Of a DNA stretch of 59,556 bases, positions 4,129 through 5,722 are shown in pieces. Numbering within the stretch: the first letter of the stretch is position 1; each line of letters begins with the position of its first letter. The notes under the pieces are model-generated. The model saw only the letters and a program-made list of their open reading frames with translations. It was not told the DNA's origin and did not search any database. Location: the sequence record OQ658364.1. One strand, written 5' to 3'. Origin of the DNA: Pseudomonas phage sp. The position numbers and the translations under genes are program-made.

Positions 4129-4222
4129 TTAAGGTGGGATCATTATCTTTTGGTATCAAAAATATGTAAACCCCCACTTAATGATCCCAATTCACCTACC
4201 CGATAAGCGGTATCAAAAAACG
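4129..4222. promoter_or_regulatory. putative recombinase binding/crossover site (res/hix-like)
   Basis: Inverted half-sites GGGATCATTA…TAATGATCCC (about 4137-4187) plus two direct GGTATCAAAAA repeats, lying immediately upstream of the serine recombinase gene. Confidence 0.35.
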
Positions 4223-4521
4223 GTCGTTTTTTGAGCCTGTCTTCCCAACTGTTGCCTGTGTGCTTGTGATTGATAGTATCTGGCCACCAAGTGGAGGGAC
4301 CATGACTTACCAACAAGGACTTGAGCTGTCAGTCATGGCGACAGCTAGACGCTCGTATCGTGCTGGCCGCAGGGTAAGTGACAGATCGTGCTAAATGCTG
4401 AGATTTGTCTTGTTAAGGAAGCTGTTACATGCATGGGTGTGTCTCTTAGTCCTTCGCAAAATTTGGTATCGCGATGGGCGCATCCGGCATGGAAATATGT
4501 TTTTTCACGAAAGGAGTTCGT

Positions 4522-5670
4522 ATGGCAGCAAAAATTTACTTTGATGAGTCCGGCTATACCGGAAACAACCTCTTGAACAAAGATCAGCCAATCTTCTCGT
4601 ATGCATCTGTGTGTAGTGATGACGACGAGGCGAGAGATTACGTCGAGAGGGCTGTGAAAAGGTATGGGATTCAGAATGGAGAGCTTAAGGGTTCTAAGCT
4701 GATAAAATTTAATAAGGGGCGAAAGGCGGTATCTGAAATATTAAAGGATTTCAAGGGTAATATTAAGGTTTCTGTTTCAGATAAAAAGTATGCGCTCGCT
4801 GGTAAGTTCTTTGAGTATATATTTGAGCCAGCTATATCTGATGATAATGCTTTGTTCTATGGATTAGATTTTCATCGATTTGTGAGTAACATTTTGTATG
4901 TAGAGTTTGTCGCGCGGGGAAGTCAAGCTGAAGAGCTGTTTGAGGACTTTGAGCGGCTGATGAAAACCGGGGACTTTGATGGGCTTGGAGCTCTGTTTTC
5001 CTCTACAAAGAATGATGCGATATCCCCTATTCTTTCTGAAATTAAGGAATTTGCAATCCTTAATAAGGGGGCGGTTATTGATGAATTGGATGGGTATGTT
5101 GGGACAGGTGCGGGAAAATGGGTGCTTGATCTGACAAATACATCACTTTTCTCATTGCTGGCTGAATGGGGAAGGCACCATGATGAGTTAACGGCGTTCT
5201 GTGATAATTCAAAGCCCCTATCCCAGGATCAATCAATATTTGAAGCTATGATTGGGCGCACAGATAAGATTTATGAGAATTTTTCAGGGGGCAGTTCGCC
5301 AATCACATTTAACCTTACTGGTCCCTTAAATCTCGTGGACTCCAAGGTCTTTCATGGTGTTCAAATTGCAGATGCAGTGGCTGCTGCGTTTGCATATTGC
5401 TGCGATGGGCGGAATCAGGACGATCACGCTAGGGAGTGGCGTGGATATATAGAGGAAATGGTTATACCAGCAAGCGTTTTTCCAGATGTTGATCACGTCG
5501 ACTTGCGTAGCCCTAAGGTAGTCAGAAACGCCATTCTGCTCCAGGAGTTGGTTTCAAGGAGTCAAAAAGGACACAGTTTGATTGACGGGATGAGGGAGTA
5601 TGTAAGTTTTATAAGTGGGCAGCTATCACAGAACCCCCTGAACATTACGACTTGGCCGTCTAGGTCGTAG
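4522..5670 (+). CDS. DUF3800-like protein (cargo gene)
   Basis: Start reset to the Met after RBS aaaggag. N-terminal KIYFDESGYTGNN and C-terminal VQIADAVAAAFAYC match my recollection of DUF3800 signature ends. Markedly AT-rich compared with surroundings. Confidence 0.65.
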   Translation: MAAKIYFDESGYTGNNLLNKDQPIFSYASVCSDDDEARDYVERAVKRYGIQNGELKGSKLIKFNKGRKAVSEILKDFKGNIKVSVSDKKYALAGKFFEYIFEPAISDDNALFYGLDFHRFVSNILYVEFVARGSQAEELFEDFERLMKTGDFDGLGALFSSTKNDAISPILSEIKEFAILNKGAVIDELDGYVGTGAGKWVLDLTNTSLFSLLAEWGRHHDELTAFCDNSKPLSQDQSIFEAMIGRTDKIYENFSGGSSPITFNLTGPLNLVDSKVFHGVQIADAVAAAFAYCCDGRNQDDHAREWRGYIEEMVIPASVFPDVDHVDLRSPKVVRNAILLQELVSRSQKGHSLIDGMREYVSFISGQLSQNPLNITTWPSRS

Positions 5671-5681
5671 ATGTATTCACT

Positions 5682-5705
5682 AAGCCCTACCATATGGTAG
5701 GGCTT
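5682..5705. terminator. perfect 24-bp palindromic hairpin between convergent genes
   Basis: AAGCCCTACCATATGGTAGGGCTT lies between the DUF3800 gene (+) and the integrase (-). There is no strong U-run. Confidence 0.4.
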
Positions 5706-5722
5706 CTGTTCTCGCGGAAGTG

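Follow-up and report, generated by a model that had tools for sequence, protein, structure and literature searches.

A candidate resolvase/res module and a stand-alone DUF3800 gene side by side on a Pseudomonas ssrA island

The stretch of DNA analysed here, record OQ658364.1 (Pseudomonas phage sp., 59,556 nucleotides), is called the window throughout. It is Pseudomonas aeruginosa DNA, and its left end contains the right-hand part of a small island inserted at ssrA, the gene for transfer-messenger RNA (tmRNA). The locus of interest on this island contains a small serine recombinase gene, a block of intergenic repeats, a gene for a DUF3800 protein, a perfect palindrome, and a tyrosine integrase gene. 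The putative maintenance module formed by the recombinase and the repeats (3538-4238) and the cargo gene for the DUF3800 protein (4522-5670) are two independent things that lie side by side. The components are of known kinds, and public records already list the cargo gene under the name DUF3800.

Recombinase, intergenic repeats and cargo gene

The recombinase gene (3538-4107, minus strand) encodes a small serine recombinase of the resolvase type with 189 amino acids (aa). The protein begins MSRTFAYGRVSTLEQ, carries the catalytic motif YGRVSTLEQ, and has a C-terminal helix-turn-helix (HTH). As the initial annotation of this DNA had stated, the gene lies upstream of the DUF3800 gene and is divergent to it. 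The protein matches PF00239 at 6e-38 and PHROG 125. Its top matches in the PDB are Tn3/gamma-delta resolvase at 1e-26 to 1e-27 (97 bits, with the Tn3 resolvase alignment spanning residues 3-183) and Gin at 5e-22 (82 bits); by sequence it appears slightly nearer to the Tn3/gamma-delta resolvase than to the Gin invertase. Searches by tblastn and with the protein find many small recombinases of 45-85% identity on plasmids and chromosomal islands; in other Pseudomonas islands the homologues are 74-85% identical. The upstream regions of 14 homologous recombinases were compared (L092-L098, L035, L099, L102, L103, L106, L107, and L109; comparison loci carry L numbers).

The repeats between the recombinase gene and the DUF3800 gene are read as a three-subsite res of the island resolvase at 4121-4238. 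Site I, the putative crossover site (4209-4238), is an imperfect 14+2+14 palindrome, GGTATCAAAAAACG-GT-CGTTTTTTGAGCCT, with its central dinucleotide at 4223-4224. Its 10+2+10 core, TCAAAAAACG-GT-CGTTTTTTGA at 4213-4234, is unique in the window, where none is expected by chance. Site II, a candidate accessory site of 37 base pairs (bp) at 4152-4188, has the inverted half-sites GGTATCA...TGATCCC and a conserved GGGTTTACA block that holds the -35 box of the recombinase. Site III, the second candidate accessory site (4121-4151), has direct half-sites, GGTATCA at 4121-4127 and GGGATCA at 4136-4142, and its elements ATAATGATCCCAC...TGATACC are conserved in close homologues. Read toward the recombinase gene, the layout is site I (~30 bp), a variable spacer of ~20 bp, site II, site III, ~13 bp, and the ATG.

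The 14 homologous recombinases, which are 45-85% identical and come from plasmids and islands, have the same order in front of them, at an equal distance from the ATG. Equivalents of site I with a CG-AC-CG centre lie upstream of most of them and are degraded in L096 and L106. The blocks of site II are kept in seven close homologues and also in more distant ones. The half-site itself varies by lineage: TGATACC in Pseudomonas, Citrobacter, and Klebsiella, TTGACC in Azotobacter, CGTACA in Enterobacter, and GGTCAC in Variovorax. The layout stays constant while the half-site changes with the recombinase lineage, as would be expected if a protein and its binding site evolve together.

The initial annotation had described an inverted-repeat site with direct repeats of a res/hix-like kind between the two genes. 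Both repeats are present, and comparison with the homologous loci points to the res type. The 11-bp inverted repeat TGGGATCATTA occupies 4135-4145 and 4179-4189 with 33 nucleotides (nt) between its arms, and the direct repeat GGTATCAAAAA occupies 4152-4162 and 4209-4219. Taken alone, such 11-mers are weak evidence, as at least two matches occur in 7 of 100 shuffled sequences; it is the comparison with homologous loci that marks them as genuine half-sites for protein binding. One arm of the inverted repeat is the outer half of site II and the other is the first half of site III, and the bases that match it in L099 are not perfectly inverted; the repeat is no unit of its own.

The sole promoter-like match in the intergenic region (10/12) is on the recombinase strand, the minus strand, with a -35 box TTTACA at 4170-4165 inside site II and a -10 box GATAAT at 4147-4142 that abuts the second half-site of site III. 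Both boxes lie in conserved blocks. No sigma-70 consensus is found on the plus strand of this region. The spacer or leader from the res to the DUF3800 gene (4239-4509, plus strand; 270 nt up to the ribosome-binding site) is not conserved and has no recognisable element: blastn and nhmmer find no homology to 80 DUF3800 loci or to relatives of the resolvase module, and its RNA fold is unremarkable (z -0.59). A structured RNA in the 283-nt leader was considered and rejected, with Rfam, fold z-score, and blastn/nhmmer all empty. Rfam searches of 3300-6000 with E up to 10 give chance matches only and no DUF3800 RNA motif, and at the gathering score there is none in the window or in 11 homologous loci.

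The DUF3800 gene (4522-5670, plus strand) starts with MAAKIYFDESGYTGNN and has GGAG 7 nt 5' of its ATG. Its product comprises an RNase H-like (type 2) core by modelling, which a large helical insertion splits, and a C-terminal helical domain. The initial annotation recognised a 383-aa protein with the conserved ends of DUF3800 proteins. The identity and the start hold; the protein has 382 aa, and VQIADAVAAAFAYC (residues ~280-293) marks the end of the domain and not of the protein. The HMMER comparison with Pfam PF12686 that had been proposed gives a match above threshold, with E 3.9e-10 and 41 bits where the cut-off is 21; it spans residues 5-292 and profile positions 2-148 of 149. DUF3800 is the sole Pfam domain found in the product, which also matches PHROG 12991 at 7e-57. 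An identical protein is already listed at NCBI as the MULTISPECIES Pseudomonas 'DUF3800 domain-containing protein'.

The GC content of the gene is 44%, compared with 54-58% for the island backbone genes and 61-67% for the flanking prophage and core DNA. Because of this low GC content and its position inside an island bounded by attachment (att) sites, the gene looks horizontally acquired, in agreement with the initial annotation. A phage origin was considered and rejected: 50,697 phage records contain nothing that matches at the DNA or protein level, and BFVD yields no similar fold. The perfect 24-bp palindrome that had been noticed earlier, AAGCCCTACCAT/ATGGTAGGGCTT at 5682-5705, separates the DUF3800 gene from the convergent integrase gene. 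It folds with a free energy of -25 kcal/mol (z -3.5) and is probably a bidirectional terminator or a 3'-end hairpin without a clear U-tract; a terminator scan misses it because the T-run is absent.

The island is ~10.9 kb long, and positions 1-7684 are its right-hand ~7.7 kb, the left att lying ~3.2 kb beyond the window start. At the junction with the neighbouring prophage (7659-7684) is a 26-nt copy of the ssrA 3' end with one mismatch. The left att is a 20-nt ssrA repeat, seen at L001 2265-2284 in assemblies with the identical DUF3800 protein. The ssrA 3' end itself, the primary attachment site of the array, is at 48111-48142, and the tmRNA gene (48112-48464, minus strand) is recognised by ARAGORN and by Rfam (207 bits) with the tag ANDDNYALAA. 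Repeats of the ssrA end at three places indicate a tandem insertion of two elements at ssrA. One is a prophage of ~40 kb (about 7685-48111), which has an integrase of its own (8676-9863); the other is the ~10.9-kb island with a tyrosine integrase at its right end. In L003 the island is present without the prophage and abuts ssrA directly.

The island integrase gene (5723-7571, minus strand) has a DUF6538 N-terminal domain (1.8e-13) and matches PHROG 1 integrase. In the window it is split into 7128-7571 and 5723-7150, and it is intact with 607 aa in L002, L005, L006, and L007. Compared with other assemblies, the window has one extra A at 1391 and at 7142, both in the context GG[A]CC, and the one at 7142 splits the integrase. 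The complete genome CP120871 (L004) has a different insertion or deletion at the same 7142 position. Either a systematic error of sequencing or a true hot spot of mutation could explain this.

The resolvase and DUF3800 genes travel separately and form no unit: they seldom co-occur, and their DNA homology falls into separate blocks. A serine recombinase lies within 6 kb in only 6 of 80 DUF3800 loci, in differing arrangements. DNA homology to islands with an 83-84%-identical resolvase covers 3544-4229 only, that is the recombinase and the res, and ends in site I; with L099 and L102 it stops at 4229. The nearest relative of the DUF3800 protein (L008, 78% aa identity) shares only 4510-5601 and the integrase (5748-6961), and has an HNH protein in the upstream place of the resolvase. 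The suggestion in the initial annotation of a small module mobilised by the recombinase is not borne out by this pattern, and the island has a tyrosine integrase, which is more plausibly its mobiliser than the serine recombinase.

Fold and family of the DUF3800 protein

The AlphaFold (AF2) model of the DUF3800 protein, built on 28 homologues, is confident, with a predicted local distance difference test (pLDDT) of 84 and a predicted template modelling score (pTM) of 0.83. It shows an RNase H fold with four acidic residues at the canonical type-2 positions, a helical insertion of ~115 residues (about 102-217), and a C-terminal helical domain of ~90 residues. Residues D8, E9, D228, and D284, together with E98, E102, and D203, are invariant in the alignment of the 28 homologues. 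In the model, D8 and E9 are at the end of strand 1, D228 is at the end of strand 4, and D284 is in the QIAD (QxAD) helix. The N-terminal DE (D8-E9) and the C-terminal QxxD (Q281-I-A-D284) are thus both present and invariant. By sequence, no match to the PDB is found, even with a profile. The protein stands as a modelled type-2 (RNase HII/HIII) RNase H-like nuclease with a predicted activity, and D8, E9, D228, and D284 are its putative catalytic residues.

The full-length family of ~370-390 aa has 222 clusters (50% identity) at E <= 1e-30 and 1156 at E <= 1e-3. Its distribution is patchy and includes gamma- and beta-proteobacteria, cyanobacteria, Chloroflexota, Acidobacteriota, Bacteroidota, and others. 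It is found on 187 plasmids and in no sequenced phage. The gene neighbourhoods were sampled at 80 species-level loci that encode relatives, with Pfam and PADLOC applied to the 150 immediate neighbours. No conserved protein partner emerges in this sample, the top Pfam family occurring three times among the 150. Defence-type neighbours among the 80 loci include LmuB, PtuB, DpdF, IetS, PD-Lambda-5, and type II methyltransferases. In Vreelandella (L010) the homologue adjoins a complete Gabija system (GajA 6e-268, GajB 2.5e-238). The gene adjoins a ThiF-family gene and a nucleotidyltransferase on an Acinetobacter plasmid, and a ThiF-family gene and an MPN-family protein on a Gloeocapsa plasmid.

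Other features stand beside family members. In Marinomonas posidonica (L016 7241-7416), isrK and C4 antisense RNAs, both above the Rfam gathering score, lie directly 3' of the DUF3800 homologue and hint at an immunity region of a phage or satellite. A distant clade (~38-42% identity; L104 3953-7152, L050, L056, L053, and L066) has as its partner an 'ATP-binding protein' of 675 aa that has no PADLOC match. The gene for this ATPase and the start of the DUF3800 gene overlap by ~10 nt, and the pair is probably a two-gene system. In L104, an Acinetobacter johnsonii plasmid, a small recombinase and a ThiF/nucleotidyltransferase pair lie beside the ATPase and DUF3800 genes.

Roles of the modules on the island

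The explanation preferred here, with a probability of roughly 70%, is an island in a defence hotspot that is moved by its tyrosine integrase and maintained by its resolvase/res module, with an RNase H-like nuclease as cargo. If the module works as that of Tn3/gamma-delta does, sites I-III of the res would be bound by dimers of the resolvase. Two direct copies of the res, from dimers of the excised circular island or from cointegrates, would synapse, and monomers would be regenerated when strands are exchanged at the centre of site I (GT, 4223-4224). Sites II and III overlap the -35 and -10 boxes, and resolvase bound there would autoregulate its own gene. The DUF3800 protein would act as a metal-dependent nuclease of the RNase HII/HIII kind. 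Its role is most likely that of a single-gene anti-phage or anti-mobile-element nuclease, and a part in defence is plausible.

The relatives of the module give the resolution step a context. L099-L101 and L102 are resolvase-module islands with DUF6538-type tyrosine integrases, and L103 and L106 have a large serine integrase. L103 also has a gpA-type replication initiator (Phage_GPA) and a Mob_Pre relaxase, and L107-L109 are P4-like islands with a DUF927 primase. Distant homologues of the recombinase are on plasmids, including a 4.3-kb plasmid with three annotated genes only and IncFII plasmids, where they lie beside partition genes. The common denominator of these islands and plasmids is a circular, often replicating form, which fits multimer or cointegrate resolution. 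Since related islands carry replication or mobilisation genes (L103, L107, and L109), multimer resolution would have a purpose.

Several points weigh against this explanation. The distal half of site I is degenerate (GGCTCA), and the resolution activity is predicted from architecture only. No replication gene is recognised on the island, where Pfam, PHROG, and NCBIfam are blank for most backbone open reading frames (ORFs), so the need for multimer resolution is itself presumed. The integrase is frameshifted in the window, and this copy of the island may therefore be immobile. The DUF3800 protein has no match among the models of PADLOC-DB v2.0.0 or NCBIfam. The neighbourhoods of the family often include defence genes, which is suggestive and, with no matched control, not an enrichment. 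The belief expressed in the initial annotation that DUF3800 proteins are enriched near defence loci is retained in part: defence neighbours are seen and the ssrA locus is a described hotspot, and enrichment is not claimed.

A more specific proposal about the cargo is tentative and stands at somewhat less than even odds. It holds that the stand-alone clade of ~380 aa (the 222 clusters, from many phyla) is a new single-gene anti-phage or anti-plasmid system. Its effector would be of the type-2 RNase H-like kind, possibly acting on RNA-DNA hybrids or replication intermediates of invaders, and would be an exchangeable cargo of the ssrA hotspot; the sister clade would be the two-gene system with the 675-aa ATPase. 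If stand-alone DUF3800 proteins do defend, an RNase HII-like nuclease would join the single-gene immune effectors, and a function would be given to a widespread domain that is already found in retron and Cas12a2/a3 loci.

It is unlikely that the DUF3800 protein instead serves the island, either as an RNase H that clears primers or R-loops during island replication or as the toxin or immunity half of an addiction system. The modelled fold is that of a type-2 RNase H, related islands replicate (GPA and the DUF927 primase are present), and a variable-region DUF3800 gene was scored essential, alongside antitoxins, in a Legionella transposon-sequencing study. These points are countered by a gene that is compositionally foreign to the island backbone, by the absence of DUF3800 from other islands with the resolvase module, and by family neighbours that differ entirely across phyla, some without mobile-element genes around them (L009).

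Quite unlikely as well is a cassette of resolvase, res, and DUF3800 gene that is moved by the serine recombinase, with res-by-res exchange between replicons swapping the cargo. Module exchange at res sites is established for Tn3-family transposons. The homology to other resolvase modules ends in site I at 4229, a few bases past the putative crossover, which would fit earlier exchange at res sites, but site I is the functional end of the module, so that a stop is expected there anyway, and 75% identity is too low to fix the exact base of the breakpoint. DUF3800 genes do lie by small serine recombinases in Variovorax (L035, downstream and together with a res-like site of its own), in the Acinetobacter loci L050, L056, and L104, and also in L069 and L089; against this stand the low co-occurrence and differing arrangements given above. 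A second res flanking the DUF3800 gene is absent, and the island is equipped with an integrase and att sites of its own.

An invertible promoter switch of the Hin/Gin type, flipping a segment to turn DUF3800 on and off as the initial annotation had also envisaged, is very improbable: PHROG 125 is named 'DNA invertase', many homologues carry the database name 'DNA-invertase', GGTATCAAAAA may resemble the hix half-site TTATCAAAAA, and on a Citrobacter plasmid a 57%-identical homologue has flagellin and a phase-1 repressor as its neighbours, but the conserved accessory subsites II and III are a hallmark of resolvases and absent from hix/gix, the recombinase shows no greater similarity to Gin than it does to Tn3 resolvase, and the NCBIfam model of the Mpi invertase gives 66 bits against a cut-off of 272. 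The partner search covered the window and the remaining 3.2 kb of the island with the 11-mers, GGTATCAAAAA, the palindrome of site I with as many as 4 mismatches, and the generic pattern ATCA-N14-18-TGAT, and found no credible second copy of any subsite in either orientation, so that the second inverted copy for which the initial annotation had proposed to look is absent from both. A candidate partner at 5228-5252, within the DUF3800 gene, was rejected because it has neither the half-site nor the centre. The partner of a resolvase is the same res on a second copy of the element, and the missing site thus argues against an invertase and not against a resolvase. Seven P. aeruginosa loci, independent assemblies that stand for 24 contigs with the identical DUF3800 protein, were compared base by base; they are 99.94-99.98% identical to the window and in one orientation, with no rearrangement.

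With the preferred explanation of a resolvase/res module beside an independent cargo gene, the intergenic region is no longer to be read as a phase-variation switch. The resolvase/res would be a recurrent backbone module of small Pseudomonas islands with Shosta, PifA, DRT3, or DUF3800 as cargo, and it may serve as an anchor for cargo mining.

The cargoes and neighbours seen in the related loci are as follows. L099 carries Shosta at 10036-12605 (ShosA 4e-87; ShosT weak, 5e-10), L107 carries PifA at 9653-11989 (2e-79), and L103 carries DRT3 at 2315-5528 (Drt3a and Drt3b). In Klebsiella pneumoniae CP098171 (L096 3166-5547), a DUF3258 protein precedes a recombinase of 60% identity and a DUF4238 protein of 793 aa follows it, so that here too a resolvase module adjoins a large gene whose function is not known. 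On the Citrobacter youngae plasmid pCF10-F (L095 1-3079), the 57%-identical recombinase has a res-like upstream layout and lies by flagellin and a 'phase 1 flagellin transcriptional repressor'. A 297-aa island ORF with an HVH motif was compared with the 'inovirus Gp2' gene beside the Citrobacter homologue and is not similar to it.

Further features lie in other parts of the window. Between the att repeat and the prophage integrase is an AT-rich (42-43% GC) overlapping gene pair, 7836-8249 and 8246-8695, on the plus strand. The pair has strong matches to PHROG 12702 and 12462 (unknown function) and none in Pfam, PADLOC, or NCBIfam; its 137-aa product has two hydrophobic stretches, and the pair looks like a prophage moron. 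The prophage also contains tandem repeats, at 20320-20396 with 22-nt units containing ACGGGGTGCAA (about 3.5 copies) and at 18837-18908 with 24-nt units AAGACTTGGCTACCGCAGTCCGCG (3 copies), which resemble iterons or operator arrays. The Pseudomonas small RNA P5 (RF01680, 103 bits) is at the far right of the window (59383-59453, plus strand).

Comparison with known systems

The P. aeruginosa ssrA locus is the core defence hotspot cDHS2 (Johnson et al. 2023, PMC10250203). The island resembles what is described there in its locus and in the landing of variable mobile elements at the ssrA tmRNA gene. The cDHS2 catalogue consists of known systems detected by DefenseFinder, and the portion of that paper drawn on here does not name DUF3800 as one of them (PMC10250203).

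The resolvase module is similar to that of Tn3/gamma-delta and to the plasmid systems for multimer resolution that follow this plan. Shared features are a serine recombinase of ~185-190 aa, which has an active site of the S10 type and an HTH at its C-terminus, and a site of ~118 bp directly upstream with a palindromic crossover and two accessory subsites. The recombinase promoter is inside the accessory subsites, and a divergent gene is on the site I side. Unlike in Tn3, the module is here in an integrase-borne island without a Tn3-type transposase or terminal inverted repeats; no transposase domain is found in the island ORFs and there are no long terminal inverted repeats, as a Tn3-family transposon would have. 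The candidate subsites measure 30, 37, and 31 bp, and the half-sites of site III are direct and not inverted, which differs from Tn3 res. The half-site GG(T/G)ATCA is presumably unrelated to that of Tn3.

The remark in the initial annotation that DUF3800 proteins are uncharacterised is outdated, since the literature gives an RNase H2-like fold and links to retrons, Cas12a2/a3, and noncoding RNA motifs. DUF3800 occurs as a type VII retron-associated protein or fused domain and as an accessory of Cas12a2/a3. For the retron-associated proteins, an RNase H2-like model and the DE and QxxD motifs are described (PMC7736814). In Cas12a2 and related loci, the accessory nuclease has an RNase H fold (PMC10910872, PMC12669027). 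Weinberg et al. 2017 describe 11 RNA motifs near DUF3800 genes (DUF3800-I to -XI, in Rfam).

The protein of the island is like those of type VII retrons and the TPR-DUF3800 proteins of Cas12a2/a3 in its Pfam domain, its DE and QxxD motifs, and its modelled RNase H2-like fold. There is no RVT domain in the island ORFs scanned and no retron or DUF3800 RNA in Rfam searches, and the protein has no TPR, with no Cas12 or CRISPR nearby and no array-like repeats. It retains the Q of QxxD, which the retron clade lacks. Unlike the retron and Cas12 proteins, it is stand-alone, with a helical insertion and a C-terminal helical domain.

A DE motif on the first strand is a feature of RNase HII and of type-2 RNase H in general. 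The DUF3800 protein shares this adjacent D-E, as well as acidic residues at the end of strand 4 and in the next helix, with RNase HII/HIII. In contrast, it is only 10-13% identical to these enzymes, is about twice as large, and has extra helical domains. Its gene is a mobile accessory, whereas RNase HII/HIII are housekeeping enzymes.

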